DNA from: a virus
Taxonomy: Duplodnaviria; Caudoviricetes
Virus record (IMG/VR): IMGVR_UViG_3300022937_000093
Location: 1 to 31,087 of that record
Strand: one strand, 5' to 3'
DNA: 31,087 bases
Every line of letters starts with the position of its first letter. The first letter of the stretch is position 1. Shown piece by piece: positions 1,719 through 31,087 of this stretch. A program made the position numbers and the translations under genes. Below the pieces are notes generated by a model, which ran no database searches, was not told where the DNA came from, and worked only from the letters and a program-made list of their open reading frames with translations.

Positions 1719-2891
1719 ATGTCAGACATACTAAAAGAAAACTGGCAGGAGACCAAAGTAGCACTTCTTGAAGGCTTAGAAGGTCACAAGAAGAGCGTAA
1801 TGGATGTCACTCTCGAGAACACTCGCAAGTATCTCGCTGAGGCGGCAACTTCTGGCGCAACTAGTGCTGGGAACGTAGCAACTCTTAACAGAGTTATCCT
1901 TCCGGTAATTAGACGTGTAATGCCAACTACAATCGCAAATGAGATTGTTGGCGTTCAACCAATGACTGGACCTGTATCACAGATCCATACATTAAGAGTA
2001 CGTTATGCTGAAACTTTTGATGACGTAACTGCTGGCGATGAAGCATTATCACCATTCCAAATTGGCTTAGGCTATTCAGGTGGTGGTTCTACTGATAAAG
2101 CAGATGCAACTGCAACACTTGAAGGTGCGGCAGGTAAAAAGTTAAGCATTCAAATCTTAAAACAAGCAGTAGAAGCGAAAACTCGTAAACTATCTGCTCG
2201 TTGGACATTTGAGGCGGCTCAAGATGCACAAGCACAACAAGGCATTGATATCGAAGCGGAAATCATGGCGGCTTTAGCACAAGAAATTACTGCTGAAATC
2301 GACCAAGAGATCCTTGCTTCATTAAGATCACTTGCTTCAGTTGAACAAACTTACGACCAAGCGGCAGTATCTGGTACTGCTACATTCGTTGGTGACGAAC
2401 ATGCGGCTTTAGCAGTTCAAATCAACAGAGTAGCAAACTTGATCGCTCAGCGTACACGTAGAGGTGCAGGTAACTTTGCAGTGGTTTCAAACCAAGCATT
2501 GACTATCCTACAATCTGCTACAACTTCTGCATTCGCAAGAACTACAGAAGGTACGTTTGAAGGCCCAACAAACACTAAATTCGTTGGTACATTAAACAAC
2601 GCAATGAGAGTGTATGTTGATGCTTACTTGGCTGATTCAGGTGCTGATGACTCTCAAGTACTTGTTGGTTACAAAGGCTCATCAGAAGCAGATGCGGCGG
2701 CATTCTATTGCCCATACATTCCGCTAATGTCTTCAGGTGTTGTTCTTGATCCAGCAACTTTCGAACCAGTTGTGTCATTCATGACACGTTATGGTTATGT
2801 TGAGTTGTCAAACACAGCATCATCACTTGGTAACGCTGGTGACTACTTAGGAAAAGTGTCAATCACTTCTTCTAACGTATCATTCTCGTAA
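1719..2891 (+). CDS. gp23: Major capsid protein, T4 gp23-like
   Basis: Motifs LPVIRRVMP, GVQPMTGP, EAKTRKLSARWTFEAAQD, EITAEIDQEI, GYKG...DAAAFYCPYIPL and FMTRYG; AAGGAG RBS; followed by a strong terminator. Confidence 0.96.
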   Translation: MSDILKENWQETKVALLEGLEGHKKSVMDVTLENTRKYLAEAATSGATSAGNVATLNRVILPVIRRVMPTTIANEIVGVQPMTGPVSQIHTLRVRYAETFDDVTAGDEALSPFQIGLGYSGGGSTDKADATATLEGAAGKKLSIQILKQAVEAKTRKLSARWTFEAAQDAQAQQGIDIEAEIMAALAQEITAEIDQEILASLRSLASVEQTYDQAAVSGTATFVGDEHAALAVQINRVANLIAQRTRRGAGNFAVVSNQALTILQSATTSAFARTTEGTFEGPTNTKFVGTLNNAMRVYVDAYLADSGADDSQVLVGYKGSSEADAAAFYCPYIPLMSSGVVLDPATFEPVVSFMTRYGYVELSNTASSLGNAGDYLGKVSITSSNVSFS

Positions 2892-2911: not shown

Positions 2912-2942
2912 AATAGGGCGGCTTAGGTCGCCCTATTTTTTT
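2912..2942 (+). terminator. Rho-independent terminator after the capsid gene
   Basis: AATAGGGCGGC-TTAG-GTCGCCCTATT stem followed by a T run. Confidence 0.9.
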
Positions 2943-2994
2943 GTCCAAAACATCATAAATTCTGCTCTATTTCTAATACCACAAAAGATCTTTC

Positions 2995-3002
2995 TATAAA
3001 TA
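2995..3002 (+). promoter_or_regulatory. T4-type late promoter TATAAATA upstream of the ncRNA/tRNA unit
   Basis: Exact gp55-type consensus, intergenic, just after a terminator. Confidence 0.75.
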
Positions 3003-3007
3003 TTATT

Positions 3008-3238
3008 GTAAAGTCAAAGTCAATGCTGATTGGCGGTGAACTTTGGGACGCCCCTGGTGACAGCACACGCTGGTGACAGATGGTAAGTACGAAGGTGACG
3101 TGGATTAGTACACTCAACTCTCACATTAACCTTGATTTCACAAAACCAATTGTTTAAGGATATGGTTAATGTTAACCCAAAAACTCGGTAGTCTCGGAAT
3201 CTATAAAGTTAACGCTCAGCCATTTTCCTTTAAATCAA
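3008..3238 (+). ncRNA. Candidate structured RNA / tRNA 5' leader
   Basis: No credible CDS. Helices: 3015-3020/3040-3045, imperfect 3092-3104/3119-3133, 3130-3138/3232-3240 (perfect 9 bp) and 3156-3176/3208-3230. The loop of the last helix is complementary to the downstream anticodon arm. Confidence 0.55.
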
Positions 3239-3316
3239 GGGGGAGTGGCAGAGTGGCTCAATGCAATAGTTTCCGAGGCTATCCAACCGCGGGTTCGAAT
3301 CCCGTCTCCTCCACCA
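3239..3316 (+). tRNA. Atypical tRNA, anticodon CCG (nominally Arg, reads CGG), with Ala-type acceptor stem
   Basis: Cloverleaf: acceptor GGGGGAG/CTCCTCC, A73, encoded CCA; D arm GCAG-AGTGGCTCA-ATGC; anticodon arm ATAGT-TTCCGAG-GCTAT (CCG at 3273-3275); 6-nt variable region; T arm GCGGG-TTCGAAT-CCCGT. Confidence 0.88.
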
Positions 3317-3340
3317 ACTTTCTTTTATTAAATAGTAATA

Positions 3341-3616
3341 ATGAAAGAATTAGAAACATCGTTGGACTGGAAAGACATTGAACACGAACTTAGAGAACTG
3401 ATTAAATCTGCACCTGAGTTTAAATTTGATGTTATAAAATTTTGTACTTCTATTGGAGGAGAAGTAAGAAAACTAAGTGATATTGAAATAGATCTTAGAA
3501 GACAGCCTCGTGATAGCATATTACTAAAACACAAAGAACAATGCAAAAAGATTAACCAAGCAATAAAAGACTTTTCTTCAACACATCTCCTACACTTGTT
3601 TTCTAGAACAGACTAA
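3341..3616 (+). CDS. Hypothetical protein (91 aa, helical)
   Basis: Fills the gap after the tRNA with phage-typical codons; weak RBS; no motif recognised. Confidence 0.7.
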   Translation: MKELETSLDWKDIEHELRELIKSAPEFKFDVIKFCTSIGGEVRKLSDIEIDLRRQPRDSILLKHKEQCKKINQAIKDFSSTHLLHLFSRTD

Positions 3617-3623: not shown

Positions 3624-3692
3624 TGTCAATTTAGGAGCCTACCTTAGAGTAGGACTTATGCGGATATCCACCGCGTAGACCCTAGAACGGCA
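3624..3692 (+). promoter_or_regulatory. Structured 5' UTR (three-way junction)
   Basis: TTTAGG(3630-35)/CCTAGA(3681-86) closes hairpins CCTAC/GTAGG (3638-3653) and TATGCGG/CCGCGTA (3657-3677). Confidence 0.5.
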
Positions 3693-3717
3693 ATATATAA
3701 AACAAAAGGAGAATATA

Positions 3718-4122
3718 ATGGGAAGACCAGTAAACAAAAGATACTTCGGATTACTAGATGACGGTACTAACCTTACGGTAAACGTACAGGTTGGTTCTAA
3801 CTCTGAATCAGAAGAAGGGTATATTATCAGACAAAGAAGTGAATCTAAATTTTTAGTTAACGATACTAAAACAGGAACAAAAACGAAAGTTGGCGGATCT
3901 GGAACTGGTAACGTATCTGTTTGTACACTTGTGGATAAAGCGGCAGGATCATTAGCGGCTGACGAAATGTCACTACAAGGTACACTAGCAGGAACTGATG
4001 GAAATCAAGTTAGAGTTGCAAAACTATATAATAGAACCTGCAGAGACTTTAATAATGTTAGATACAAATGGGAAGTTCAAAACGACTCATCCGAATCTAT
4101 CATGCTTTTAACTGCAATCTAA
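3718..4122 (+). CDS. Hypothetical virion protein (134 aa, MGRPVNKRYFG...)
   Basis: Strong AAGGAG RBS, with its own promoter and terminator, in a late-gene context. Confidence 0.8.
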   Translation: MGRPVNKRYFGLLDDGTNLTVNVQVGSNSESEEGYIIRQRSESKFLVNDTKTGTKTKVGGSGTGNVSVCTLVDKAAGSLAADEMSLQGTLAGTDGNQVRVAKLYNRTCRDFNNVRYKWEVQNDSSESIMLLTAI

Positions 4123-10523: not shown

Positions 10524-13500
10524 ATGGCACAATTTAAACTAGAAAGATTTACTTATAGTTACGCAGGTGATTGGGAACCTAATAAAGCGTATAAACTCGA
10601 TGATATTGTTACGGTAAACGGTAACGTTTATTTCTGTAACAAAGCACACACATCGCAAACAGATTTTTATTTAGATTTCTTATACGAATTTACATATCCG
10701 GCTCCATATACTGCGGCAAACGACATTGATGCTGAATTTGACTTTAGTATAGATGTAGGCGGCGAAAACACTACCGTCGACGGAAGCGGTTTAGACTTTA
10801 CGGTGACTAGAAGTGGAAATAGATATTCTGTAGCGATTGTTGAAGGTGGAAGAAATTATGTAACCAAAGAATATTTTAGAATTCCGGGTGATCAATTAGG
10901 TGGTGTTAGAGGTACTAATGATGCTATTGTTACAATCGATACAATTGATAATGTGGAAGACGGTGGAGTAATTACTCCTGGGGTAGTACAATCACTTTCG
11001 GTTACTGGTACTCCAGCATTAACAAAATGGGAAATACAAGCAGATGGTTTAAGTTGGCAAGGCGAATGGCAACCATCAACAGGTGTTCCAGGAACTGAGC
11101 CTGGTGATGCAGGTTATCCTTATGTTCCTAAAAAATATTATATTAATGATTTAGTTTTTAAATCAGGTAATGTTTATAAATGTGTACAAGGACACATTGC
11201 TTCAACCGATTCTACATACGGTTTAGAAAATAATATTCAATATTGGACACTACAGATCCAAGGTAACCATTGGAGAGGAGCATGGACAGGATTTACAGGA
11301 TATAATCCAGGAGATGTTGTTACATATAATGGTACCATATGGCGCTGTGTAACATCTCATCAATCAGACACTATTGGAGTTGGATTAGACGGCGATGCAG
11401 AAAAATGGCTTAAAGTTTCTGAATCAGATTATTGGAGAGATAGTTGGCAACCACTAACAAGATATAGAGATAGAGATATAGTTACCTATGGTGGTATTGT
11501 TTATCGTTGTATAAATCCTCATACTTCAGGTGATGCAACAGCAGGTCTTATAGGAGATGACGGTCAAGGAACATTCCAGGATTTAGGTAAATGGCAAGTT
11601 GTTGTTGACGGTATTAGATACACTGGTGATTGGCAACCAAGCACAAAATATTACAAAAATGATATAGTAAGATTCAGTCAAAATACTTACAAAGCAACAG
11701 ATTATTTTACATCAGATGTTGACTTTGATTCTGCAAACTGGGAAATTTATGTTCCAGGTATGGCGTATGAGGACTTATGGAATTTATCAACAGAATATCA
11801 ACCAGGTGACATAGTGCAATATGGTGGATACACATATTATTCTAAAACATTTAATGAAAACAGAATTCCACCCTCAAATAATGCTGATTGGGAAATACTA
11901 GGAGAATGGTATAATATCAAAGGACAATGGTCCGCAATACAGGATTATAAAGTAGGTGATGTTGTTTCTAATAATGGATATATGTATTGGTGTGTGTCTG
12001 ATAATACAGGAGATAGACCGGACAGCGGAAATAACGCACAAACATATAACATTGGTTTTAAAAATGGAACATATACATGGAACGGAGTTGCTACACCGGA
12101 TTTAACATTCTTAAGAGGAACAACGATTACGTTAAATCAATCTAGTCTTGAAAATAACGGTAACGCTATATATCCAGCAACAGAAGTTGACGGAGAACTA
12201 GGAGTAGGAGTAGAGGTAGAACAAGGTTATTCTGTAACATATATTCTAGATGGCGAAGTTGTACCTACAAAAGACATATATGCTTCAGGCTTCAACTCAG
12301 CATCTGATAGAAAAGTTATAATACAGATACAACCAGATGCACCAGGAAATCTTTATTTTGCAAGTTACAGCAACACAGGTGCTTCGGGCAATCAAACAAT
12401 TACAATAGCAGGTTCAAGCAACTGGGATGTACTAATGCCAGGCACGTTCTTCAAAGGTACTTGGAACGATTTTGAAGAGGATTCTTCTGTAACAGAATAT
12501 CAAATTGGAGACATTGCAACATGGGCAGGAACATCTTATAGATGTTTTAAAAGACATACAGCAAATATTCAATATAGCAGACCCGACGAAGATGTAAGAA
12601 AAAATAATCCAGAATATTGGACCGTTTACATTCAAGGTATTAGAACTAACGTACTAGCACAAAAAGGTGACATTAAAACTTACCAAGCAGATTCTGATAT
12701 TAGGGTTCCAATTGGCGATCCTTCTACCGTTCTTAAAGGATTAGATCAGATTAATGCCGATAGTTCAACAGGACCTGGTCCACAATGGCAGTTGTTTAAC
12801 GAAAGCGATAAAGTTTATTTTGTTAGTTTGGATGGTGTTGATTCACCTGAGAGAGGTAAAACAGAAACTAGTGCATTCAGAACTATTAAGTATGCTTGTG
12901 ATTTTATTCAAGCAAACCCAGGAGCAAGAGCGCCTGCTACAATTTTTGTAAGCACGGGAGAATTTAAGGAAGAATTACCTATTAAGGTACCTAATGATGT
13001 TGCTGTTGTTGGACATGAATTAAGATCGACTAGAGTTGTTCCTAAAGCAGGTTTTGAAGATACAGACATGTTCCATGTTAAAAATGGTTGTGGATTAAGA
13101 AATATGACCATGCAAGGACTTGTTGGAACACTTGGTTCTCCAAATGAGTTTGGAACTAGAAGACCAGTAGACGGTGGGCCAAGTTTTGTAAGTTTAGATC
13201 CAGGTAGTGGTCCTTCGGATAATTCGGTTTGGGTATATTCAAAATCAACCTATGTACAAAATGTAACAACAATTGGTGTTGGTTGTGTAGGTATGAAAGT
13301 TGATGGACAATTACATGGCGGTGGTAATAAATCTATCGTTGCAAACGACTTTACACAAGTTATCAGCGGCGGTATTGGTATGTGGATAACCAATGGTGGT
13401 TTATCAGAACTTGTATCAGTGTTTACATACTATTGTCATATTGGATATCTTGCAGAAGTTGGCGGGAAGATTCGTGCTACAAATGGTAACAATTCTTATG

Positions 13501-16500
13501 GAGATTATGGATCAGTTGCTGAAGGATTTGATTTATTAGAAACACCAATTACTTCTAAGTTTGATAACCGTTCAACAGAAGCAACGGTAACTGATGTTTT
13601 AACTGACCTAGATGATCAAATTTATTTGTTTGGTTACGGTCACGCTGGTCAGGAATATACTTCTGCAAAAGTTCAAAGTTTTTCAGGTACAGGTTTTGGA
13701 CTAAGCACAGAATATACAGAATTTAGAAACGGTGCATTATCAGAAGTTAGAATGATGGATCCTGGTGATTCGTCTACTCCAGGAGGAGCAGGATATAGTG
13801 TTGCAACAGGACAAGCATCAGCAGGTGATTCAACTGGACTAACTTTAGATGCAACAGATACGGTCGAAGATAGTACAGGTGTTTATGACGGAAAAAGAAT
13901 AATATTGACACAAGGTAAAGGTAAAGGACAATATGCAAAAGTGTTATCTTTTGACCCTTCAACAAAACGTTGTGAAATTGTTAGAGAAAGTGATGGATTG
14001 CCTGGATGGGATCATTGGATTCCTGGAACTCCAATAGTTACAGCACTTGACGAAACATCAAGTTACAGAATCGAACCAATGGTTGAATTCAACGAACCAC
14101 CTTATTCTCAAAGCCAAGGAACATTACCAACACCATTGGATTATAAAAGAATTAGATATGGTGGTGGAAAATTTGTTGCTATTGCACAAAGTGAATTTGG
14201 TAGAGGCAATACAAATCAATTTTTATACTCAACCGATGGAGTGAGTTGGACTACCGGAACATTTGATGGAAGTGCATTGTTTACTCCTAATGATTTTTGG
14301 AGTTGGAGTGATCTTGCATATAGTGGAAGTACATGGGTTGCTGTTGCTAAAGAAGGAATTGTTGCAACTTCAACCGATGGAGTGAGTTGGTCCTTAAAAG
14401 AAGTTTCAACAGACTCCACTGCTCCTGTAGAAAGATTTATTGAATTTGGTGCTAACCCTGTTACATCACAAAGTTACAAAGTAACGGTTTCTATACCCGG
14501 AGACAATCCGTTGTATCATTTCGATGGTGCTACAAATTCAGCACCTGATATAACATTAGTTGCTGGTAATACATATATCTTTAATCAAAATGATGCAAGT
14601 AATTTAAGTTGTCCGATTTATTTTGCAACAACACCATTAGGTCATCACAGCGGTGATACTCCTATTAGTGAAGGTATAAAATATTTCTTAGACAATGTTC
14701 AAGTTGCAAATTTAGAGGCGTATGTTTCAGGATTTGATGCGGCACAAACAAAAAGAGTTGAATGGACGGTTCCAACAAATCTTGTTGGAGTTAATGTTTA
14801 TTATGTTAATTACAATAGCACAGGATCGAATGTACAAACCGACAGCAGTTATGCACTAGTTACTATTGATAGTGAAAAAGAGTTTTGTGTTGTTGGTAGA
14901 TCAAACGCAGGATCATACGAATGGTGGCAATCAACCGACGAAGGCTCTACATGGACCGTATATGATTTACCAAGTAAAGAAAGTAATCCAACAGCAATGA
15001 CATTAACATATGGATCAGGAAAATTTGTTATTACAACAAAAGATTATGATTCAAGTGTGAATAGAATCTACATCAAAACACCAGGACAAAGAAGTTGGAG
15101 AGAAGAATTTATTGGCGGTGCAGATTTGAGTAATGTTGAATCTGCGGTATATGGTAATAACTTGTTTATAGCAACAGAAACAAATTCTAACAATGTGTTT
15201 ATAAATCCAAATGGTGGTGAAGGACAATGGTATCAACAATCAGGTGTTTTACCAACTACAGGTAATTGGAAACTAGGTTACGGCCAAGGTGTCTTTGTCG
15301 CATTTAAACCAAACTCAACAGAGTTTGCTTTTAGTGAAGACGGAATTCGTTGGAAAACTAAAACTCTTTCAACATCAGCAAAATGGGAAGATATTGGTTT
15401 TGGTGATCCAGACAATGACGGAAAATTTATTTTAATAGGTAGCGGTACTCCTTTACAAGGTGCAGGAGAACAAAAATTTGTTACTATTAAAGCAGGCAGA
15501 AAACCATTAGGAAGAGTAAACATTAATAATAACAGAGTTAGCAGTATTTCAATTTATGATCCAGGTAGTAATTATGTAGAATCTTTACCTGATTTAGTTA
15601 CAAATTATAACGTAACGGTAGCAAGAAATACCGCAGATGATGCAGATGTTTTTTATATAAACGGATCTGAAACACCGGCATTGTCTTTTGTTGAAGGTAA
15701 ACGATATGTATTTGATCAAAGTGATTCTTCGAACGTTAACGGAGAAGATGTTTATCCATTAGTATTTGCAACAGATTCAGGATTAAATTCTATTATCGAG
15801 GTTAATGTAATTTACAGACTTGGTGGTGTTAATAAAACAAGACAAGAGTATGTAAGTGGATTTGCAAGTGCATCTGAAAGAACGGTTGAAATAGAAATTC
15901 AATTTAATGCAGAAGCAACTTATTATTACGGTTCAAGTGAACTTGCTGGTATGGGAAATAGTATTAGTGTTTCTTCTTCAGAACAACTGGCTATAACAAT
16001 TACTGATCCGTTAGCAACAAACGAACCTACAATGCTACTAAGATTAGCCAATGGAGTATTACCACAACCATCATTTATTAATAGAGGTACTAGTTTTAGA
16101 TCTGCAACAGCAACAATTACCGGAAATGGATTTGCTGACAAATATCAAGTAGGAAAAGAGATTGTTGTTAAAGAATTAAGTAGAGAACCTGGACCAGGTG
16201 ATAACTTGGCTATTAGTGGAATAACACAAAGAGATTATTTGGTAACAAAAGTAACCAATGTACAAGGTGTTGCACCAAACCTAACAGCAACAATTCAAGT
16301 AAGTCCTCCGATAGGAGTTGATGAGTCACCTGAACACGAAACAGAAATGACCATTAGACAGAAATATAGCCAGGTGCGTCTAACATTCCATGACTTCTTA
16401 GACATCGGTACTGGTAATAAAAATTCAACTAGATATCCTGTGCGTTATCTAGAAGGATTCCTAAGCGGTAGTGATAATTCACCTAGACAATTTAATGAAA

Positions 16501-17039
16501 CAGACTTTAGTAACGGTGGTAGGGTTTTCTATTCATCAACTGACCAAGATGGTAACTTTAGGGTCGGCGAGTTGTTTGAAGTTGAACAAGCATCGGGTAT
16601 TGTAACTATTAATGCTGATCAATTTGAACTTGACGGATTAACTGAACTTTCATTAGGAGGTGTTACGCTCGGCGGAACAGGTGCTGTTATTAGAGAATTT
16701 AGTATCGATCCATTGTTTACAGCAAATAGTGATGAAATTGTTCCTACACAAAAAGCAATATCGGCATACGTTAAATCACGTATTACGGGCGGTGGATCTA
16801 GCGTTAACGTTAACAAAGCAACAGCGGGTGTTGTTGTAATTGGCGGAACAAGCGGACAATCATTAGAAACAAGTGATTTAACACCTATACAAATTAAAAC
16901 TAAAATGTCATTCCAAGGAGGTGTTGGAGGAAGCATGGCGGCAATGGCGTTCTTTGCTTTTGGAACAGATATTCCTATGGGCGATGACATGGGTGGAACA
17001 GACGAACTTGGAGGGGATGCAGGTGGACATGGCTTCTAA
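10524..17039 (+). CDS. Giant multidomain tail-fibre/adhesin-like protein (2171 aa)
   Basis: N-terminal W.....Y..GD.V.Y.G..Y.C repeats (CBM5/12-like); beta-helix region (ELRST, GLRN, SLDPG, YVQNVTT, ANDFTQ); Asp-box S.DG..W propeller repeats; C-terminal STDQDGNFRVG domain. Paralogue of 17072. Confidence 0.82.
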   Translation: MAQFKLERFTYSYAGDWEPNKAYKLDDIVTVNGNVYFCNKAHTSQTDFYLDFLYEFTYPAPYTAANDIDAEFDFSIDVGGENTTVDGSGLDFTVTRSGNRYSVAIVEGGRNYVTKEYFRIPGDQLGGVRGTNDAIVTIDTIDNVEDGGVITPGVVQSLSVTGTPALTKWEIQADGLSWQGEWQPSTGVPGTEPGDAGYPYVPKKYYINDLVFKSGNVYKCVQGHIASTDSTYGLENNIQYWTLQIQGNHWRGAWTGFTGYNPGDVVTYNGTIWRCVTSHQSDTIGVGLDGDAEKWLKVSESDYWRDSWQPLTRYRDRDIVTYGGIVYRCINPHTSGDATAGLIGDDGQGTFQDLGKWQVVVDGIRYTGDWQPSTKYYKNDIVRFSQNTYKATDYFTSDVDFDSANWEIYVPGMAYEDLWNLSTEYQPGDIVQYGGYTYYSKTFNENRIPPSNNADWEILGEWYNIKGQWSAIQDYKVGDVVSNNGYMYWCVSDNTGDRPDSGNNAQTYNIGFKNGTYTWNGVATPDLTFLRGTTITLNQSSLENNGNAIYPATEVDGELGVGVEVEQGYSVTYILDGEVVPTKDIYASGFNSASDRKVIIQIQPDAPGNLYFASYSNTGASGNQTITIAGSSNWDVLMPGTFFKGTWNDFEEDSSVTEYQIGDIATWAGTSYRCFKRHTANIQYSRPDEDVRKNNPEYWTVYIQGIRTNVLAQKGDIKTYQADSDIRVPIGDPSTVLKGLDQINADSSTGPGPQWQLFNESDKVYFVSLDGVDSPERGKTETSAFRTIKYACDFIQANPGARAPATIFVSTGEFKEELPIKVPNDVAVVGHELRSTRVVPKAGFEDTDMFHVKNGCGLRNMTMQGLVGTLGSPNEFGTRRPVDGGPSFVSLDPGSGPSDNSVWVYSKSTYVQNVTTIGVGCVGMKVDGQLHGGGNKSIVANDFTQVISGGIGMWITNGGLSELVSVFTYYCHIGYLAEVGGKIRATNGNNSYGDYGSVAEGFDLLETPITSKFDNRSTEATVTDVLTDLDDQIYLFGYGHAGQEYTSAKVQSFSGTGFGLSTEYTEFRNGALSEVRMMDPGDSSTPGGAGYSVATGQASAGDSTGLTLDATDTVEDSTGVYDGKRIILTQGKGKGQYAKVLSFDPSTKRCEIVRESDGLPGWDHWIPGTPIVTALDETSSYRIEPMVEFNEPPYSQSQGTLPTPLDYKRIRYGGGKFVAIAQSEFGRGNTNQFLYSTDGVSWTTGTFDGSALFTPNDFWSWSDLAYSGSTWVAVAKEGIVATSTDGVSWSLKEVSTDSTAPVERFIEFGANPVTSQSYKVTVSIPGDNPLYHFDGATNSAPDITLVAGNTYIFNQNDASNLSCPIYFATTPLGHHSGDTPISEGIKYFLDNVQVANLEAYVSGFDAAQTKRVEWTVPTNLVGVNVYYVNYNSTGSNVQTDSSYALVTIDSEKEFCVVGRSNAGSYEWWQSTDEGSTWTVYDLPSKESNPTAMTLTYGSGKFVITTKDYDSSVNRIYIKTPGQRSWREEFIGGADLSNVESAVYGNNLFIATETNSNNVFINPNGGEGQWYQQSGVLPTTGNWKLGYGQGVFVAFKPNSTEFAFSEDGIRWKTKTLSTSAKWEDIGFGDPDNDGKFILIGSGTPLQGAGEQKFVTIKAGRKPLGRVNINNNRVSSISIYDPGSNYVESLPDLVTNYNVTVARNTADDADVFYINGSETPALSFVEGKRYVFDQSDSSNVNGEDVYPLVFATDSGLNSIIEVNVIYRLGGVNKTRQEYVSGFASASERTVEIEIQFNAEATYYYGSSELAGMGNSISVSSSEQLAITITDPLATNEPTMLLRLANGVLPQPSFINRGTSFRSATATITGNGFADKYQVGKEIVVKELSREPGPGDNLAISGITQRDYLVTKVTNVQGVAPNLTATIQVSPPIGVDESPEHETEMTIRQKYSQVRLTFHDFLDIGTGNKNSTRYPVRYLEGFLSGSDNSPRQFNETDFSNGGRVFYSSTDQDGNFRVGELFEVEQASGIVTINADQFELDGLTELSLGGVTLGGTGAVIREFSIDPLFTANSDEIVPTQKAISAYVKSRITGGGSSVNVNKATAGVVVIGGTSGQSLETSDLTPIQIKTKMSFQGGVGGSMAAMAFFAFGTDIPMGDDMGGTDELGGDAGGHGF

Positions 17040-17071: not shown

Positions 17072-20000
17072 ATGGCTGAATTTTTACTTGGTAGAATTAA
17101 ATTTGTATGGAAAGGTGACTGGGCCTCTAGCACCGCATACGTTAAAGACGATGTTATAAGATACGGCGGTAAAGTATATATTTGTACGGCACCACACACA
17201 TCAGACACTAGTGATTTTTACCTAGATAGTGACAACTGGAATATTTTTACAGATGGATCAACATGGAAAGATGACTGGACTACTAGCACATACTACAAAC
17301 TAGGTGATATTGTCAAGTATGGTGGTTATTTGTATATTGCAAATAATGCTCATACATCAGCAGATACCGTCACAAAAGGTTTAGAGTTTAACCAAGCAGA
17401 TTGGGACATTTACTCAGAGTTTTTAGAATACAGAAATGATTGGGCAGTAAACACAAGATATCGTGTAAACGATATTGTAAAATATGGTGGAACCGTTTAT
17501 GTTTGTATTGACGATCACACTTCGTCAGCAACAGCCGAAACTGATATTGATGGTTTAGAAAGTGATAACAACGGAAAGGTTCTTACATTTGATTCTGTTT
17601 CAGCCGCAGATGCAAGTAGAGCCGCCGGCACTTATAGTGTAACAACTACAACAAATAATAATGGTTCAGGCGTTACAGCAAATGTTACCGTTGATGGTAT
17701 TGGTGGAGTTGCAATTACATTAACAGCAAACGGTCAAGGGTATGCTGTTGGAGATATTATTACAATCGCCGACGCTGACCTTGGAGCAGGCGGTGCACCG
17801 GATGTAACATTTACCGTTGTATCAGTTGCAGATAGATGGAATATTTTTTCCGAAGGGTTTGATTGGAAAAATGAATGGACTGCCGCAACTAGATATAAAA
17901 GAAATGATCTAGTTAGATATGGTGGACAATTATATGTTTGTAGATTAGGACATAAATCAGGAACTCTTTCTGATGGACTAGAAGCAGATCAATCTAAATG
18001 GGAATATTTTCATAAAGGTGTTGTATACAGAAGTGCTTGGGCATCAGGAACAAGATATCGTGTAAACGATTTAGTACAATACGGTGCAAACATTTATATT
18101 TGTACAACACATCACACAGCAACAAATTTTATTTCAGATGAATCTAATTGGGAAAACTTTGTTCCAGGTTTAGAATTTGAAGATAGTTGGAACATTGGAA
18201 CAACATATCAACCTGGAGATTTGGTTACTTATGGTGGTTATTCTTATATTGCAAAAACAAACAATGTAGGTAAAGCACCATACTCAAATGCAAACGATTG
18301 GGGATTATATCTAAAAGGATTAAACTTTAGAGGTGACTGGGGAGATGATTCTTCAGCACAAGATTATCTAGTTGGTGATGTGGTAAGAGTAGGTGGATAC
18401 ACTTATATGTGTATTCAGGATCATCAAAATCAAAGTCCACCAAATGCAACATACTGGGTAAGATTAAATCAAGGTATTGAATGGAACGGTGACTGGTCTA
18501 ACATTACACAATACGATTTAGGTGATGTTGTTTACTTTGGTGTTAACTCTTATCTTTGTGTACAAGCACACCAATCAGATCAAGCGATTGCACAAAATAG
18601 ACCAGATCAGGATACACAAGGGGATTACTGGGCAATACTAGCCGGAGGTAATGAACAAAGTGCATTAACAACAGACGGCGACTTAGTTTATTATTCAGGA
18701 TCAGGACCTACAAGATTACCAATTGGTGAAACAGGCCAAGTGTTATCTGTTGGAACTGCTGGATTACCTGCATGGCAATATTGGGGCAGAACAGATCATG
18801 TTTACTATGTTGGTCCTAACGGTAATGACGGAGATTATCCAGGATACGGTTCAACATTAGATAGACCTTTTAAAACTATTAGACGTGCATGTGAAGCAAT
18901 TGAAAAAGGATCTTTAAATCCTAATGCTGTTGATGCACTTAAAAAGAATAGACAATTCATTCAACGTGAGGTTGTTGAATGGGTTGATTATCAAATAGCA
19001 AACGTTATTTCTCCATTCACTGGAGCATTTACATACGACCAAGCATTGTGTTACAGAGATATGGGACACTTGGTTGATGCTGTTGTCTACGATTTATCAC
19101 ATGGTGGTAACGAAAAAACAAGATCAGTTGCTTATAACTATTTTGATAAAGACGGTGCAAGTTATGTTAATGGACAGGTTAGTGAAACGGTTGCGGCAAT
19201 TAACTATGCAATTACGGTAATGGATGCTGTTATTTCAAATGTAGATCCAGCAACAAATTATCAGACAGAAAACGGCTACACACCTGCTATTGTACAAATA
19301 AAACCTAACAATACAGAAGAAGCAAATGCACAAGCAATAATTACTAGTTTAGTTGCTATTGTTACCGATGCTATTACAGCAGGCGGCGTTTCAAATATTC
19401 CTGCAGAAGAAGCAGTACAAAAAACTATTTTTGTTAAAACAGGAACATATTACGAAATACTTCCTATTGTTGTTCCTAAGTTAACAGCAGTTGTTGGTGA
19501 TGAATTACGTAGTACGGTTGTTCAACCAAGCACATCGGCACAATATACACAAAGATCGGATATCGATTATAGTGTTGCGGCCATTACAAGAATTAAAAGT
19601 TTAATTAGTGATATTGCACAAGGTAATGGTGTTACTAAAACAGGTACAAATACTCAAACACAGATTACAGCAGGTCCGGCTGGTACAGCAACTGAAGGTA
19701 CAGAATTAGAAAGTAAATTGCAACATTTAATTGATTATATTAATTACTATGCTGGCAATGACACACAAGATTCAACAGCACCAGTTATGACAAATGGCCA
19801 GCAGTCATTAACAATTACAGACATTACAAAAGCATCTACTGCCGTAGTAACAACTTCGGTAGCACACGGATTATACGATAGACAACAAGTTCATATTAAA
19901 AACGTAAACGGTATGACCGAAGTCAATAACAGAGTTTTCTGGGTTGACAAAATTAATGCAACAACGTTTGCACTTTATGAAGATTTTTATCTAACAATTC

Positions 20001-23000
20001 CTCATAATAGCACAAGTCATAATGCTTACTCAAGCGGCGGCAATGCTTACTATAATGGCGATAGAGAATCGCAAGATCAAAATGTTCATAATGCTATTAG
20101 ACAACTTTATCTTAACAGAGAATTTTTAGCAGAAGAAGCAACGGCATATATTACTGCTACATATCCGTCTTATACATATTCAGTTGATAGTTGCAGACGT
20201 GATGTTAGAGAATATGTTGACTCACTTATCTGGGATTTGACTTACGGCGGAACATATAGAACAACAATGAACGGCCGTTGGTATGTTAATGCTGTCGAAG
20301 GTTCATTAACAGAAGATATGTTCTATCTAAGAGATGGTACTGGTTTAAGAAATTGTACCGTTAAAGGATTAACAGGAACATTAGGTACAACAAATGCTTA
20401 CGGAACAAAACGTCCAACAGCAGGTGCGTTTGTATCACTTGATCCAGGTTGGGGTCAAGCAGATAATAGAACTTGGATTGGTACACGTTCACCTTATGTA
20501 CAAAACGTAACAACATTTGGTACTGCGTGTGTTGGATTAAAAGTTGACGGTTCATTACACGATAGTGGTAACGATTCAATTGTTGCCAACGACTTTACAC
20601 AAATTTTAAGTGATGGTATTGGTGCATGGATTACAAACTTAGGTAGAGCAGAACTTGTTTCTGTGTTCTCATACTATGGACACATTGGATACCTAGCAGA
20701 GAACGGCGGTAAGATTCGTGCTACTAATGGTAACTCATCTTATGGTACATTTGGTACCGTAGCAGAAGGTGTTGACGCAACTGAAAAACCAATTACGGCT
20801 GTTGTTAATAACCAATTTAGAAACGCAGTTGTTGGCGAAGTACTTACAGATCAAAATCAAATTTTAACAATGTTCTATGACAATGCTGGTGTTAATTATG
20901 AATCAGCAACATTCACTATCGGCGGCGACGGTGCTAGTGCAAGTGTTATAGGAGACGAAATTAGAGACCAAGGTTTGTTTAATGTTAGAATGTTAAACAC
21001 TGATGTTAATGCAGATGGCACAGGAGACTTTGGTGGTGCAGATTACGGATTTGCTAACAACACAGCACAATTTGGTAATGAAACATCAATTAGAATTTCA
21101 AACACAGATACTGCAAATAGCGGTGACTACGATGGAATGAGAATTGTAATTACAAGTGGTTTAGGTGTTGGACAATATGCTTACATTGGATCATTTAATG
21201 CAGGTAACAAAGATGCTACCGTATTTAAAGAGTCAGATGACGAGCCAGGATGGGATCATTTTGTTCCTGGAACACCTATTGCGACATTACTTGACGGAAC
21301 AACAAAATATATTATTGAACCAAGAGTAACTATTAATGAACCACCGTTCTCAAGTACATCACAAACTTATGGAACAGCAATTCAAAGTTCTCAGAATTCA
21401 ATTGCTTTCGGTAATGACAGATTTATTATTGTAGGTTCCAATACAACAACGACATTATATTCAACAGACGGTGCTACATGGGCGGCCGGCGGTAATCTAC
21501 CAACAACACAACAATGGGGCGGATTAACACACGGTGGCGGTGATGATAGTACAGAAGAATGGATTTGTGTTGGTTATAATTCAACAGCAGGAGCATATTC
21601 AACAGACGACGGTGCTACTTGGAATTCAAGCACATTACCTGCAACAGCAAATTGGATTGATACAGCATTTGGTAATTTAAGATATGTTGCTATTGCTGAA
21701 GGTAGCACATCGGCGGCATATTCCGATGACGGAATTAGTTGGTCATCAACTACACTACCAAGCACACAAAATTGGAAAAAAGTTATTTACGGAAAACAAT
21801 TCCTAGCAATTAGTGATAATGCTAACTATGCTACATCGATCGACGGTTCAACATGGAACTCAAGAGCGTTACCAACATTTACTGATACTGATACAAAAGT
21901 AAAAGATGTTGCTTACGGTAACGGACGTTATCTTGTAATTGGTGATAAAGGAACTGAAGCATTTTATTCAACAGACGGTATTAACTGGACTTCAACAATA
22001 ATTGACACAACTGCTGATTCATCAATTGGTGGTGGTGATGGATTAATTGCATATGGTTCTGGTATATTCCTTTGGACAGCAAGTAAAAACGGTCAAGTTA
22101 AAACTATTGATGAAACAAGTTTCTCAGGTGCTGATGCATTAAGACCTGCTAATACATACACGGATGTAACACAAGATTCAACTACAGGCTCTGGAACAGG
22201 AGCAACATTTGACATTACGGTTGACGGAACAGGTACGGTAACAAGTGTAGTTCCAGTATTATTAGGTCAAGGTTATGCGGCCGGTGATACAATTACTATT
22301 GCAGATGCTAGCCTAGGCGGTGGTGGCGGAGCCAACTTTACTTTTGATATTCAAACTATTCATGATAGTTCACAAACATCAATCTCAAGAGATGGTATTG
22401 TTTGGAAAGCAAAAACAAATGGAAAAACAGATGCAGTTTATTCGTCACTAGCATATGGTAGACCTTATGTTTCAGGAAGTTCTGCACATAGACCAACATG
22501 GTTTGCTATACAAAGTGGTTCAAATACTGGTTCTATTATTAGAGCAGGTGCTCAAGCATTTGTTAGAGCAAGAGTTGCTACAGGTAAAATTGCAGGTATG
22601 AGAATTTGGGAACCTGGTTCAGGTTATTCAAGTCCTCCAACAATTACAATTACAGATCCTAGCAACACTATTGAGGCTCCTGTACAATTAAGAATTGGTG
22701 ACGGTGTATTAGGTAATCCAACTATTTCTAACGGTGGTACTGGCTACGAAACAGCACAGGCAACGGTTGCCGGCAGTGGTACAGCAGACGAGTTTCAACC
22801 AGGTGCTAACATCTTTATTAAAGATGTATCAGAAATTCCTAAAGCAGGATCTAACGTAGAATTTAGTAACTTGCCAGGATCATATTTCAAACTGGTTACG
22901 GTGCGTGAATTGACAGGGCCAGATGCAAAAGGAAACTATGCATGTAAACTTCAAGTTTCGCCGGACATTCCTGTTGATACTGCACCTCCACATTTAGATC

Positions 23001-24355: not shown

Positions 24356-25234
24356 ATGGCAGACTTAAAAAGTTTATTAGACAAAGCAACGGCAGAGGAC
24401 TTTGATGCGAATGATCCATCAATGCCTCGTAACAAATATTATTCTTGTCAGGTAACATTTGCTACAATTTGCGGAGTCTCTCATAACAGAGATCAGTGTA
24501 AACACGAATTTTGCTGGACACCTGAACCCGACGTTACTAAAATGAAAATTCAAATGTGGGGCGGCGGCGGAGGCGGCGGCGGAGTCTGTTGTTGTTCATG
24601 GGGTTTCTCTGGAGGCGCAGGTGCTTACGTAGAACTTCAAAATATCGACGTTACTAATTGTAAAACAGAATACCGGATTTGTATTGGACCACCTTCATGT
24701 TGTTCACCTGTTCAATCATGTGGATACAGAGGTTGTAAATCATACATTACTAACGGATACCTAAGAAAATGCGACGGCACAACTTGTGCTGGTAACTTCT
24801 GTGCAGAGGGCGGTATTTCAGGTTGTTCTTTCTGCTTTATGTTTAACTGCTTTAACTGCGGAATTTATATGGATCCAAGATACAGCACAACATGTGCTTG
24901 TTATTTTGACGGTGACCTAGGTTATCCGGGAAGAGTAGGCGGTATCGCTACATTTTGTTCTAACAACAATGCTTGTTGGTACAAACACTATACAATGATT
25001 CCTGCGATGCTTGAAACTTGTAAAGAAAGATGGGAATTAACAAGATTCTGTGCCCAAAATATGCCAGGTGGCTGGGACGGATGTAAAATGGGACAAGGAT
25101 ACCTTATGGGCGGCGGTGGATCGCATCAAAGAGTACCAGGCGTAGGTGGAATTTCAGGTTCTGCTGTCGGTGGAAACTGCTATTGCGGTGGTCCAGGCGG
25201 CCCTGGTTTAGTAAGAGTATCAATGTTTACGTAA
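24356..25234 (+). CDS. Cys-rich, Gly-rich putative fibre-tip/adhesin protein 1
   Basis: AAGGAG RBS; WGGGGGGGGVCCC...GG.GAY and C-terminal PG.GG...G.VRV; 29 Cys in 292 aa. Confidence 0.8.
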   Translation: MADLKSLLDKATAEDFDANDPSMPRNKYYSCQVTFATICGVSHNRDQCKHEFCWTPEPDVTKMKIQMWGGGGGGGGVCCCSWGFSGGAGAYVELQNIDVTNCKTEYRICIGPPSCCSPVQSCGYRGCKSYITNGYLRKCDGTTCAGNFCAEGGISGCSFCFMFNCFNCGIYMDPRYSTTCACYFDGDLGYPGRVGGIATFCSNNNACWYKHYTMIPAMLETCKERWELTRFCAQNMPGGWDGCKMGQGYLMGGGGSHQRVPGVGGISGSAVGGNCYCGGPGGPGLVRVSMFT

Positions 25235-25251: not shown

Positions 25252-26100
25252 ATGGCAAATTTAAGATCACTTATAGGTTCAGTTAGCGTTAACGACATAT
25301 CGCCTTTACAAGATAAATGTACATTATATTTTCTTCCGCATTGTCAATGTTATTGTAACTCAGACTACGGCGGAAACTGCTACCTATACTGGTGCGTTCC
25401 AGCAGGTACAACAAAAATGAAAATGGAAGTATGGGGCGGCGGTGGATCCGGCGCTGGTGCTTGTTGTTGTATGGGTGGTACACCGGGTGGATCAGGTGCA
25501 TGGGCATACAAATGTTTAGATTCAGCAACAGATTTTGCGGCAGGTAACACATATGATTTATATCCAGGCCCATCAACTTGCTGTGCTTCATGCTGTTGTG
25601 GAATTATTGGATGTAAAGGTTATATTTCAGGTCCAGGGTTAACTAACTTTTGTGCTGACGGCGGTAATGCAGGTCAGACTTGTTGTTTTATTCACTGGGG
25701 TTGGTCAGACTGCGTAGGTAATAGATGCGGTTATTATTATACAAATAGAATGTGTTGTATTTGTTGCAGATGCCATTATGGTTCGGATGGAGGTTCTCCA
25801 GGAAGACCTAGTGCTATTTGGGCACAATGTACTTGTGGATCGTGCTGGTGGAAATTATTATATCACTATCCAGGCGGTATTAACAATACCACAGGTGGAT
25901 TCACAACAACACAAACAATGGGTAATGCTTGTAACCATGAATGGTCACGTTGTGTACGGGGTAACCTAGGTTGGGCAACAGGACAATCAGGTCATTTACC
26001 TGGTGTCGGTGGTCCGAGTGCAACATCATGCGGTGGCGGATGTTGTTATGGATTTCCCGGCGCGGCAGGAATGGTAAGAATTACTTATGATCAAAGTTAG
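25252..26100 (+). CDS. Cys-rich, Gly-rich putative fibre-tip/adhesin protein 2
   Basis: The likely start ATG 25252 (MANLRSL) matches the paralogue N-termini; WCVPAG...EVWGGGGSGAGACCC; 34 Cys in 282 aa. Confidence 0.8.
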   Translation: MANLRSLIGSVSVNDISPLQDKCTLYFLPHCQCYCNSDYGGNCYLYWCVPAGTTKMKMEVWGGGGSGAGACCCMGGTPGGSGAWAYKCLDSATDFAAGNTYDLYPGPSTCCASCCCGIIGCKGYISGPGLTNFCADGGNAGQTCCFIHWGWSDCVGNRCGYYYTNRMCCICCRCHYGSDGGSPGRPSAIWAQCTCGSCWWKLLYHYPGGINNTTGGFTTTQTMGNACNHEWSRCVRGNLGWATGQSGHLPGVGGPSATSCGGGCCYGFPGAAGMVRITYDQS

Positions 26101-26114
26101 GGGTAAATATTGAT

Positions 26115-26960
26115 ATGGCACAACTAAGTTCATACGTTTCGGAATTAAGATTACCAGCAGGATCATCAACAACAGATCTTCCAGCGGGTTGTCAGTTTGT
26201 ATATTCATCAAGTTGTTGGAGTTGTCCATCATTTGGTAACTATCAACAATATTGTTGTTTTGCATTTATTGTACCGAGCGATGCGGCAAGAGCAACGTTT
26301 GAGGCTTGGGGATCAGGCGGCGGTGGCGGTGTGTCTTGTTGCTGTATGGGCGGATCACCGGGCGGATCAGGTGCTTATTCAAGAAAAACAATTCCAGTAT
26401 CAACAGGTTGGTGCTATGACCTATGTTTAGGTGAAGGCGCATGTTGTAATAATGGACGGAACGGATTTAGAGGATGTCGTTCTTCTGTAAAAGGATGTAA
26501 TATTAGTATTTGTGGTTCTGGCGGTAAGCCAGGATGTTCATACTGCTTCCCAGGTTGCGGATGTTACGTAACAGGATACTGCTGTTGTCGTGCTTGGAAC
26601 TGCGGTTGCTGTATTAACGATAGTCCAGCAGAAGCATCCGGCGGAGATTTTAACGTATGCGGTGTTCGTGGATGGATGCAACATAGAGCATGTGGCGGCC
26701 ATTGCTGTCACAAACAACACATTCCATATCCAGGTGGATTGGTTAACAAATGCGGTGGTACCGTTGCTGTACAAAATGGTGGTAGAGGTTTTGAGACTTA
26801 CGAAAATTGTGCGGCTATGAACAATGTGGGATGGAATAGACTTTCTCCACAATATGTACCAGGTATGGGTGGCCCAACTTATTGGAGATGGTCAGGTGGA
26901 TGTCATTGTGGATCGTATGGTGCTCCAGGACTAATTAGAATTACTTGGTATGATAACTAA
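26115..26960 (+). CDS. Cys-rich, Gly-rich putative fibre-tip/adhesin protein 3
   Basis: VPS...FEAWGSGGGGGVSCCCMGG.PGGSGAY...GLIRITW; 33 Cys in 281 aa. Confidence 0.8.
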   Translation: MAQLSSYVSELRLPAGSSTTDLPAGCQFVYSSSCWSCPSFGNYQQYCCFAFIVPSDAARATFEAWGSGGGGGVSCCCMGGSPGGSGAYSRKTIPVSTGWCYDLCLGEGACCNNGRNGFRGCRSSVKGCNISICGSGGKPGCSYCFPGCGCYVTGYCCCRAWNCGCCINDSPAEASGGDFNVCGVRGWMQHRACGGHCCHKQHIPYPGGLVNKCGGTVAVQNGGRGFETYENCAAMNNVGWNRLSPQYVPGMGGPTYWRWSGGCHCGSYGAPGLIRITWYDN

Positions 26961-29769: not shown

Positions 29770-31087
29770 ATGAGTGAAAAGAAACCAGTTTGGATTGCAG
29801 GTATTGCTAGAGGACATAATTCAGGTGTTTGTTTACTCAAAGATGGCAAGGTAGTTTTCTCTGTAGAAGAAGAAAGACTATCAAGGCAGAAGTACGACGG
29901 CGGACCGTTTGCGTCAATGATTAAAATTTTAGATTATACAGATAAAATTGATTATTTGGTTGTTGCACATACTCAAAGTTTACAAGAAACTGCTCCAAGA
30001 GTTGATTATACCGGTGACGATGTTTATACAGGCATGGCACGTAAATTAGGATTAATTAGTAGAAAAGATAATCCATACGGACATAGTCAAGTAATTGATA
30101 TGAGTTTTGTACATCACAAGTTACATGCCGCCGCGGCATTTTATCGTTCTGGTTTTGAAAAGGCTGTTGCTGTAATTGTTGACGGTGCAGGAACATTTAT
30201 CCCTTTACAATTTGGCGGTGAACATATTACTGGATGGGAAACAGAAACTATTTTTACATGTGACTATCCTGGAACTTTTAAAACAATTTACAAACACATT
30301 GGAGTACAAAAACCAAGCGTTCATGTAAGCAATCCTACTTTTGATAGTAGTATGTATAACGAAGATGGTACACATCATTGTGTTATTACCGACGGTGCTG
30401 GTATTACTAAAGTTTATGAAGCGGTAACAGAATACTGCGGATTTAGTTCTATTGAAGCAGGCAAGACTATGGGACTATTTCCATATGGTAAAGAGAATTT
30501 AGATATTCCACCGTTATTTAGATACGGCGAAGCGAAGCATCCTACTGCAAATAGAAATTTAATTATTCCTAATTATCCTAATGGTGCTATTGTTAACGCA
30601 CTTGCATATGACTTCCTTGAAACAAATGTAGAAGAAAGCAAATATACGGTAACAAATGATGGCGGACCTGACAGAACTAGATTACAAAATAGAAGAGATC
30701 TAGCGTATGCTTGTCAAATTCAAACACAAAACCAAGTTGCTGACCTAATTAGAAAAGCAGTACAAATGTCAGGTGAAAAAAATGTAGTAGTTAGTGGCGG
30801 CTATGGTTTAAATTGCGTTGCTAATTATCATTATCTTGAAGAACTAAAGGATGAAGGTATTAATTTATATGTAGAACCTATTTCTAATGATGCAGGCACA
30901 GCAATGGGTGCGGCAATGATGATTTCTAGAAGTATTAGTCAAGACATGACTATCGATCATAGTTTAAAACATTCATTATATCTAGGACCAAAACATGAAT
31001 ATACTGATGCGTCAATTCAAGAGCATGTTGATAGGTATAATGGAACAATTGAAGATGCTGACTATAACAAGGTAGCAGACTTAATTG
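29770..31087 (+). CDS. Carbamoyltransferase, NodU/CmcH/TobZ family (3' truncated; absent from the ORF track)
   Basis: MSEKKPVWIAGIARGHNSGVCLLKDGKVVFSVEEERLSRQKYDG...HHKLHAAAAFYRSGF...IVDGAG...EAGKTMGL.PYG...SGGYGLNCVAN...PISNDAGTAMGAA...YLGP; AAGGAG RBS; open to the window end. Confidence 0.92.
   Translation, partial: MSEKKPVWIAGIARGHNSGVCLLKDGKVVFSVEEERLSRQKYDGGPFASMIKILDYTDKIDYLVVAHTQSLQETAPRVDYTGDDVYTGMARKLGLISRKDNPYGHSQVIDMSFVHHKLHAAAAFYRSGFEKAVAVIVDGAGTFIPLQFGGEHITGWETETIFTCDYPGTFKTIYKHIGVQKPSVHVSNPTFDSSMYNEDGTHHCVITDGAGITKVYEAVTEYCGFSSIEAGKTMGLFPYGKENLDIPPLFRYGEAKHPTANRNLIIPNYPNGAIVNALAYDFLETNVEESKYTVTNDGGPDRTRLQNRRDLAYACQIQTQNQVADLIRKAVQMSGEKNVVVSGGYGLNCVANYHYLEELKDEGINLYVEPISNDAGTAMGAAMMISRSISQDMTIDHSLKHSLYLGPKHEYTDASIQEHVDRYNGTIEDADYNKVADLI

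Follow-up and report, generated by a model that had tools for sequence, protein, structure and literature searches.

A phage tRNA that joins an arginine anticodon to an alanine-type acceptor stem: a candidate for missense decoding of a rarely used codon

The usual explanations for tRNA genes carried by phages are that they supplement the decoding of certain codons or stand in for host tRNAs that defence has destroyed, and both roles presume that the genetic code is kept. Here, we consider a gene that raises another question: what does a phage gain from a tRNA whose anticodon, CCG, names arginine and whose acceptor stem carries the marks of alanine? The gene lies in a stretch of 31,087 nucleotides (IMG/VR record IMGVR_UViG_3300022937_000093), hereafter the window, which belongs to a large T4-like phage and covers part of its region of head and tail genes. 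The DNA runs containing the stretch come from salt-marsh and marine samples, and the best cultured matches of its gp23-type capsid protein (64-69%) belong to phages of 284-469 kb. An initial annotation, made from the sequence alone, proposed that the tRNA inserts alanine at CGG, either as sense-codon recoding or as deliberate mistranslation. Features that bear on these proposals are collected in Table 1. Elsewhere, the window holds an Rfam freshwater-2 RNA motif (3637-3720, plus strand; 57.8 bits, cut-off 49.9) directly 5' of the ORF at 3718, a tandem pair of tail-fibre-like paralogues (10524-17039, 2171 aa; 17072-23590, 2172 aa), and a carbamoyltransferase gene at 29770 that runs past the window end.

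Table 1. Window features around the tRNA gene, and the three CGG codons of the window
Feature	Position	Strand	Basis or remark
Major capsid protein gene (gp23-type), outside the cassette	1719..2891	+	PHROG 138, E 3e-97
Hairpin followed by a T run, 3' of gp23, terminator-like by eye	2912..2942	+	Sequence; invariant in the sister lineage
Optional cassette, ~390 bp (promoter box, RNA element, tRNA), between the gp23 hairpin and a 91-aa ORF	2944..3340	+	Left edge 2944-2951
TATAAATA box	2995..3002	+	Invariant in the sister lineage
Conserved non-coding RNA-like element	3018..3125 (variable part to ~3225)	+	116/123 against the sister lineage over 3003-3125
tRNA gene, anticodon CCG	3239..3316 (anticodon 3273-3275)	+	Sequence, ARAGORN, Rfam match of the identical sister copy
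Second TAAATA box, 5' of the 91-aa ORF, right cassette edge	3329..3334	+	Same box and ORF at the empty site
CGG codon 1 of 3, phrog_4205 paralogue 1, residue 107	24674..24676	+	13 orthologues: Arg (AGA) 9, Gln 4
CGG codon 2 of 3, paralogue 2, residue 236 from the ATG at 25252	25957..25959	+	Closest orthologue Arg (AGA); Pro 8, gap 4 of 13
CGG codon 3 of 3, paralogue 3, residue 115	26457..26459	+	Arg (AGA) in 14/14 orthologues

The gene is the single tRNA that ARAGORN calls in the window. Its anatomy is as the initial annotation described it: the CCG anticodon, pairs G1-C72, G2-C71, a G3:U70 wobble (3241 and 3310) and G4-C69 at the top of the acceptor stem, A73, an encoded CCA, C20 in the D loop, and an intact T arm, the last with a G49:U65 wobble. 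The D stem has 3 bp and a G13.A22 pair, the variable region is 6 nt long, and the core residues U8, A14, G15:C48, G18G19, A21, and U33 are present. A canonical 7-bp acceptor stem adjoins a 5-bp T stem, and the 7-nt anticodon loop of the cloverleaf bears C35 and G36, as in a bacterial tRNA-Arg(CCG). The A37 singled out as unusual for CCG tRNAs turns out to be ordinary, occurring in 54 of 99 viral CCG tRNAs and in 48 of the 92 of those with A20. The gene is repeated without change on a sister contig (G009), where it matches Rfam RF00005 with 52.7 bits (cut-off 29), and contigs of three of four marine DNA runs span the whole gene with 0 substitutions. The minimum-energy fold of the single sequence recovers only the acceptor and T arms (z = -0.34). 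A tmRNA or permuted tmRNA was considered and rejected: the D and anticodon arms are complete, the mRNA domain is absent, and ARAGORN calls no tmRNA. Against the tmRNA model the gene scores 33.4 bits, under the cut-off of 47, and the acceptor and T arm are the matching parts.

Where does such a molecule come from? Among 409 tRNAs of the fetched loci, compared at 62 positions outside the loops, the closest body is a phage tRNA-Ser(UGA) (48/62), followed by a tRNA-Tyr (44); the best match with an Arg anticodon reaches 42 and the best tRNA-Ala 40. For the D arm and the 6-nt variable region, the nearest match is tRNA-Cys(GCA) of large phages. Judged by sequence, the Ala-like part extends no further than A73 and the first four acceptor pairs; D arm and variable region are of Ser/Cys/Tyr type. 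Since the nearest body is Ser-type, the window tRNA is not a tRNA-Ala with an altered anticodon, and descent from a tRNA-Ala isoacceptor was rejected because neither an NGC anticodon nor an Ala-type core is present. The molecule likewise lacks the long arm and G73 of tRNA-Ser, the U73 and anticodon of tRNA-Cys, and the A20 of tRNA-Arg. Pattern and similarity searches of cultured phages returned no exact or near relatives, only T-arm matches.

Published identity sets allow a prediction of how this tRNA is charged. The bacterial alanine set comprises A73, G2-C71, G3.U70, and G4-C69, with G20 as a minor determinant, and bacterial arginine identity relies mainly on A20, with C35 and U/G36, and on C3-G70 as a minor element (PMC9976931). 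The window tRNA has all four main alanine elements and lacks the minor G20; it lacks both the main arginine determinant A20, having C20 instead, and the minor C3-G70, having G3:U70. Alanine rather than arginine charging follows from these sets (PMC9976931). Moreover, natural G3:U70 tRNAs of non-Ala build mainly insert alanine in E. coli (PMC5389517). A20 is kept in the other Arg tRNAs printed for five carrier clusters (G001, G003, G008, G015, and cyanophage S-CAM7) and in all three Arg tRNAs of the gp23 relative G013, which suggests that the ArgRS of these hosts likely needs A20. We therefore regard the window tRNA as probably charged with alanine. It has a dual identity, in that its identity set and its anticodon name different amino acids while the meaning of the codon, as shown below, is unchanged.

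The gene sits in a cassette that the phage group can do without. In contigs of runs X8, X12, X14, and X19, position 2943 or 2950 is joined directly to 3341, and in gp23 relatives the hairpin is followed by a TAAATA box and the ORF, with the cassette missing. A terminator scan did not call the hairpin at the cassette's left. The TATAAATA box, which we take to be the T4-type late promoter consensus, has two matches in the window, both intergenic; the chance expectation is 4, so there is no excess. Of 14 TAAATA hexamers on the plus strand, 8 lie in intergenic DNA, which makes up 3.6% of the window. The TATAAATA box likely drives the RNA element and the tRNA. RNA-library contigs cover 3248-3398 and 3024-3213 at a depth of 2-4, far under that of gp23 and with no silent control for comparison.

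Pattern scans found the tRNA in four viral and five metagenome loci, which represent two lineages 89% alike over 6 kb; one locus (L087) is the window itself and another (L088) is a chimeric-looking assembly, and neither was taken as independent. The L088 contig jumps from within gp23 to 3067 at a common short repeat, likely a misassembly. Between the two lineages, the tRNA is identical at 78/78 positions, the RNA core at the tabulated 116/123, the spacer that separates these two at 87/113 (77%), and the next ORF at 225/276. The identical block around the tRNA measures 131-141 nt, and one locus (L090) looks recombinant there; thus, recent exchange may add to selection in keeping the tRNA identical. 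The expectation that the tRNA would be co-conserved downstream of gp23 holds in one sister lineage and fails broadly, as no tRNA of any kind occurs at that place in 80 relative loci, 65 of which extend at least 450 nt downstream.

Upstream of the tRNA lies the RNA-like element, which contains four GGUGA repeats, two of them within short CUG-GUGA-CAG hairpins. An Rfam search at E up to 5 gave no family match, cultured phages gave no match, and a scan for the double-hairpin pattern returned the same lineages and one match inside a coding region. Its fold is no better than that of shuffles, and two-sided covariation is absent in the 3-4 sequences available. One distant homologue (G014:497-610; BLAST E 1e-7) lies directly 5' of a CCG tRNA that also lacks A20, carrying U20, and that has U1-A72 instead of G3:U70; a canonical A20 Arg(CCG) tRNA follows (L374:497-863). 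The side-by-side placement of non-A20 and canonical CCG tRNAs suggests two jobs. A similar CCG tRNA with U1-A72 and C20 occurs at L376:2089-2164, and such U1-A72 tRNAs (L374, L376) possibly represent a second misreading identity, perhaps Gln-like. Two other readings of the element were set aside. A short ORF at 3023 was left uncounted because its start codon, by eye, is not kept in G014. Pairing of the element's conserved CGG and UGGU words with the tRNA anticodon and 3' end was rejected because the words are too short; there is also no T-box model match.

Does the phage itself use CGG differently? Across 22 ORFs, CGG accounts for 3 of 9,988 codons. All three face Arg (AGA) in the closest orthologues, and Ala faces them in none of 13-14 orthologues; the proposal of sense-codon recoding therefore fails. 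Against the relative G010, the agreement with Arg sites is 2/3. The three codons stand one apiece in three adjacent Cys/Gly-rich phrog_4205 paralogues, a clustering with a post hoc chance of ~7e-4, and the relatives' copies have CGG at 0 of 22,489 codons. This location at Arg sites in three paralogues is as expected if the tRNA helps to read CGG as arginine. The placement as a whole is equally compatible with recent gain of the cassette, with a tRNA that reads CGG as arginine, and with a codon gate. In the sister lineage, CGG is absent from 4,978 codons. Relatives without the tRNA are equally CGG-poor (per 1000 codons, 0.3-0.44 in carriers versus 0.40 in relatives, and 0.97 versus 1.00 and 0.87), and the idea that carriers avoid CGG more than their relatives do was accordingly dropped.

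The design is not peculiar to the window. A sample of CCG tRNAs from 12/64 of IMG/VR yielded 120 loci, of which 13 were dropped as truncated or lacking a cloverleaf and 107 passed the cloverleaf filter, giving 99 distinct sequences. A20 is present in 92 of these and G3:U70 in 7. A20 is missing from 5/7 CCG tRNAs with G3:U70 and from 2/92 others (Fisher p = 6e-6, a value that overstates independence because the five form only two families). An anticodon-blind scan of IMG/VR for the acceptor (anticodon not ending in C) produced 70 loci and 59 distinct sequences, 39 with clean cloverleaves: 20 lack a clean anticodon arm, 11 are true Ala tRNAs out of register, and 28 are clean non-Ala tRNAs. Fifteen of the 28 have Arg anticodons, and A20 is found in none of the 14 that read CCG (8), UCU (5), or CCU (1). 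Those 14 belong to 8 of 21 families, three of them CCG families with separate bodies. This repeated pairing of G3:U70 with A20 loss on Arg anticodons backs alanine charging.

The same acceptor also turned up on other tRNAs. Phage tRNAs with a CUA (amber) anticodon carry it (L104, L109, L125, L160), and phage Tyr(GUA) and UAA-anticodon tRNAs (L105, L152, L156, L163, L112, L131) have G3:U70 and A73. Among 185,579 species genomes, the acceptor pattern occurs in 24 loci, about ten without a proper anticodon loop; bacterial tRNA-like genes in Skermanella, actinobacteria, and others have an Ala-type acceptor with a short loop replacing the anticodon loop (L184, L186-L188, L198-L202, L205, L207).

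The largest CCG family derives from a cyanophage tRNA-Ala(UGC). In its anticodon stem, three of five pairs show two-sided change, and CCG and G3:U70 stay constant; the set comprises seven related sequences including the parent Ala tRNA, which makes this a modest test. For each of the 12 carriers counted, the anticodon is directed at the Arg codon that the phage uses least (10 carriers) or second least (2 carriers), the reverse of codon compensation. CCG carriers have a GC content of 0.32-0.46, and UCU/CCU carriers of 0.49-0.56. Non-carriers share the Arg-codon rarity, so the anticodon follows codon bias and does not create it. One carrier of a CCG tRNA with G3:U70 and U20 (G015, 94.5 kb) has no CGG in ~27,000 codons.

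A cultured example is provided by cyanophage S-CAM7. Two of three isolates examined (KU686213 and MT586120) encode a CCG tRNA, annotated as tRNA-Arg, with G1-C72, G2-C71, G3:U70, G4-C69, A73, and C20, and CGG is the rarest Arg codon of the phage. This tRNA matches that of the window in CCG, acceptor, A73, and C20, and in being optional among isolates. It differs in deriving from the phage's own tRNA-Ala(UGC), in lying within a tRNA cluster, and in having no upstream RNA motif that we could find, and thus has a separate origin. All 53 aligned CGG codons are also present in the tRNA-less isolate, so S-CAM7 is likewise not recoded. Between host and cyanophage, CGG use differs greatly: it amounts to 2.3-2.5% of codons in a pair of marine Synechococcus strains (PMC11726456) and to 0.1% in S-CAM7. 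A further tRNA of MT586120, Arg(UCU) (L330:1304-1377), has a 3' anticodon-arm side shorter than that of KU686212 and is annotated as Pyl(cta).

If such tRNAs misread CGG, the codon might be expected to keep away from sites at which arginine is conserved. In S-CAM7, homologues have Arg opposite CGG at just 3/15 sites, whereas the remaining Arg codons of this phage face Arg at 59-61% of sites (p = 0.002-0.003). The carriers G001 and G002 give 0/7 and 0/2, and the other Arg codons of S-CAM7, G001, and G002 face Arg at 61-84% of sites. For non-carriers, the counts are 15/23 and 18/27 in S-SKS1, which has no CCG tRNA within the 200 kb read, 0/2 in Sf-CH11, and 1/1 and 2/2 in others. Pooled, and with the window included, CGG falls at Arg sites in 5/27 cases in carriers versus 21/32 in non-carriers (p = 5e-4; 0.009 without G001), a comparison of few sites from three related cyanophage-like carrier genomes. 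The window taken alone lacks this avoidance, its three CGG codons being at Arg sites. The UCU/CCU carriers and G003, G008, and G015 offer too few aligned sites and give no signal. CGG seldom faces Ala (1/15 in S-CAM7, 1/7 in G001, 0/3 in the window), and the seven sites of G001 face Met, Pro, Ala, Tyr, or Lys. The avoidance of conserved Arg sites in the other carriers is an indirect sign that CGG may be misread there, and it backs alanine charging.

What, then, is the tRNA for? We consider deliberate mistranslation the most likely role, as the initial annotation suggested in its second proposal, with a benefit that we infer. Specifically, the tRNA would be transcribed late, together with the upstream non-coding RNA, from the optional cassette. 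The host AlaRS would load it with alanine, and the resulting Ala-tRNA would compete with the host decoder and place alanine at a share of CGG codons. The code of the phage would be unchanged, with CGG still arginine in phage genes and very rare there. The pay-off would be lopsided mistranslation that harms host proteins more than phage proteins. Taken whole, this account of a late-made, AlaRS-charged missense tRNA, causing partial Arg-to-Ala replacement at CGG mainly in host proteins, stands in our judgment about evenly between right and wrong. Because alanine marks recur on several unrelated phage tRNA bodies, alanine is likely slipped in at a codon that the phage hardly uses. That damage to the host is the selected benefit is more doubtful. 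This step is weakened if the host of the window phage is AT-rich, as CGG would then be rare there too; the GC-rich UCU carriers weaken it again, since their hosts likely make little use of AGA. In its widest form, the notion is that phages have repeatedly evolved a one-gene saboteur of a sense codon, in which an Ala-identity tRNA is set against the least-used Arg codon, host proteins, possibly those of defence, are mistranslated, and virion proteins are largely spared; the version in the window phage would share its cassette with a new non-coding RNA, one that regulates misacylated CCG tRNAs or goes along with them. We offer this generalization tentatively.

An alternative is that the molecule is an alanine acceptor not meant to decode at all: a decoy for tRNA-targeting defence enzymes or SmpB, or a private donor of alanine, with a rare-codon anticodon chosen as the least harmful. 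The partial resemblance of the acceptor and T arm to the tmRNA model suits this reading, as do the roughly ten genome look-alikes with a short loop in place of the anticodon loop, and a rule of aiming at the rarest codon fits the avoidance of harm equally well. In the complete genomes G005 and G007, moreover, such a tRNA is the sole Rfam tRNA. (In G007, the solitary G3:U70 UCU tRNA at 53959-54030 is followed just downstream, by eye, by both ends of a permuted tmRNA-like gene; L343.) Against this reading, the 7-nt anticodon loop has U33 and a purine at 37, and a loop of the same sequence occurs in a viral Arg tRNA that has A20 (L265). CCG stays constant while the anticodon stem covaries, the anticodons gather on arginine together with A20 loss rather than at random, and CGG keeps off conserved Arg sites in other carriers. 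As for a private donor, FemAB, Acetyltransf_6, and LPG-synthase domains are absent from all four complete carriers tested and from the relative G010, and a Pfam scan of nine window proteins, within the 31 kb, found no Fem/MprF-like transferase. We judge this alternative unlikely.

Another alternative is a working tRNA that is charged wholly or mostly with arginine and supplements a host poor in CGG decoders, G3:U70 being tolerated. C35, G36, and A73 suit ArgRS, arginylation independent of A20 is known in yeast and some protists (PMC9976931), and the window's three CGGs stand at Arg sites of late genes where relatives have AGA. Set against these points are the retention of A20 in 92/99 viral CCG tRNAs and in the Arg tRNAs of G013, the adjoining non-A20 and canonical CCG tRNAs of G014, the lack of CGG among 4,978 codons of the sister lineage, and the scant demand that 3 codons per 10,000 create. 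A supplement is thus quite improbable in our view. The gene could also be a neutral, decayed passenger of a mobile cassette, unexpressed or uncharged. The cassette is missing from most relatives and known from two lineages only, a single change, A3-to-G, separates the G3:U70 pair from a Ser-type acceptor, the fold is weak, and perfect identity may stem from recent transfer. Against decay, every core residue is intact, and several changes from a Ser/Cys-type body agree in direction (no long arm, A73, G3:U70). The 78/78 identity stands beside a spacer at 77%, the upstream RNA is again linked to a non-A20 CCG tRNA in a distant phage, and the design recurs, all of which make a relic a poor explanation. 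Reassignment of CGG to alanine in the phage's own genes is the least credible reading by far: the anatomy resembles a putative Ala-tRNA(CCG) of the Clostridia genus RGIG3102 (10.64898/2026.04.02.715157) and CGG in G001 is never opposite Arg, but the window's CGGs (in 31 kb of a much larger genome) are opposite Arg and never Ala, the cassette is optional, and 53/53 CGG codons are common to S-CAM7 isolates whether or not they carry the tRNA.

If missense decoding is correct, these recurring genes would give phage tRNAs a third role, the purposeful breaking of a sense codon. It would also mean that Arg codons, the codons most often reassigned in prokaryotes (10.64898/2026.04.02.715157), can pass through an ambiguous stage borne by mobile DNA. 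A direct test of the claim is possible, since S-CAM7 is available in culture both with such a tRNA and without it. The genes are annotated as ordinary tRNA-Arg, and annotation by anticodon thus hides the design. A literature search whose coverage excludes most subscription journals brought up no earlier description of an Ala-identity phage tRNA with an Arg anticodon.

Several known systems share parts of the design. Closest in anatomy is the putative Ala-tRNA(CCG) of RGIG3102, tied to a tentative genome-wide reassignment of CGG from Arg to Ala; as the main text describes it, this tRNA also has CCG, G3:U70, and G1-C72 and lacks A20, and that main text makes no mention of phage (10.64898/2026.04.02.715157). 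It is cellular and linked to reassignment, whereas the window tRNA is phage-borne and optional, and CGG still means arginine. In Streptomyces, tRNA-ProX with ProRSx likewise combines a mismatch between acceptor identity and anticodon with missense decoding, without recoding and with an unproven role (PMC11415595; PMC10404621). That system has Pro identity, Ala/Asn/Thr anticodons, A33/A34, and a dedicated synthetase (PMC11415595); the window tRNA has Ala identity, an Arg anticodon, and U33, and no synthetase is seen in the 31 kb. The G3:U70 allo-tRNAs of Mukai et al. (PMC5389517; related work, PMC7609411) bear non-Ala anticodons, including those for Arg codons, insert alanine in E. coli, and are linked to mobile DNA. 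Their acceptor branch is 8/4 or 9/3 (PMC5389517), unlike the canonical 7/5 branch and short variable region of the window tRNA, which is therefore not an allo-tRNA. Finally, the Ala-tRNA(CCU) of Sphaeropleales mitochondria places G3:U70 and A73 on varied bodies and reads a rare Arg codon, as the phage design does (PMC6551751). There, the tRNA is organellar, the codon is AGG rather than CGG, and the reassignment from Arg to Ala is complete (PMC6551751).
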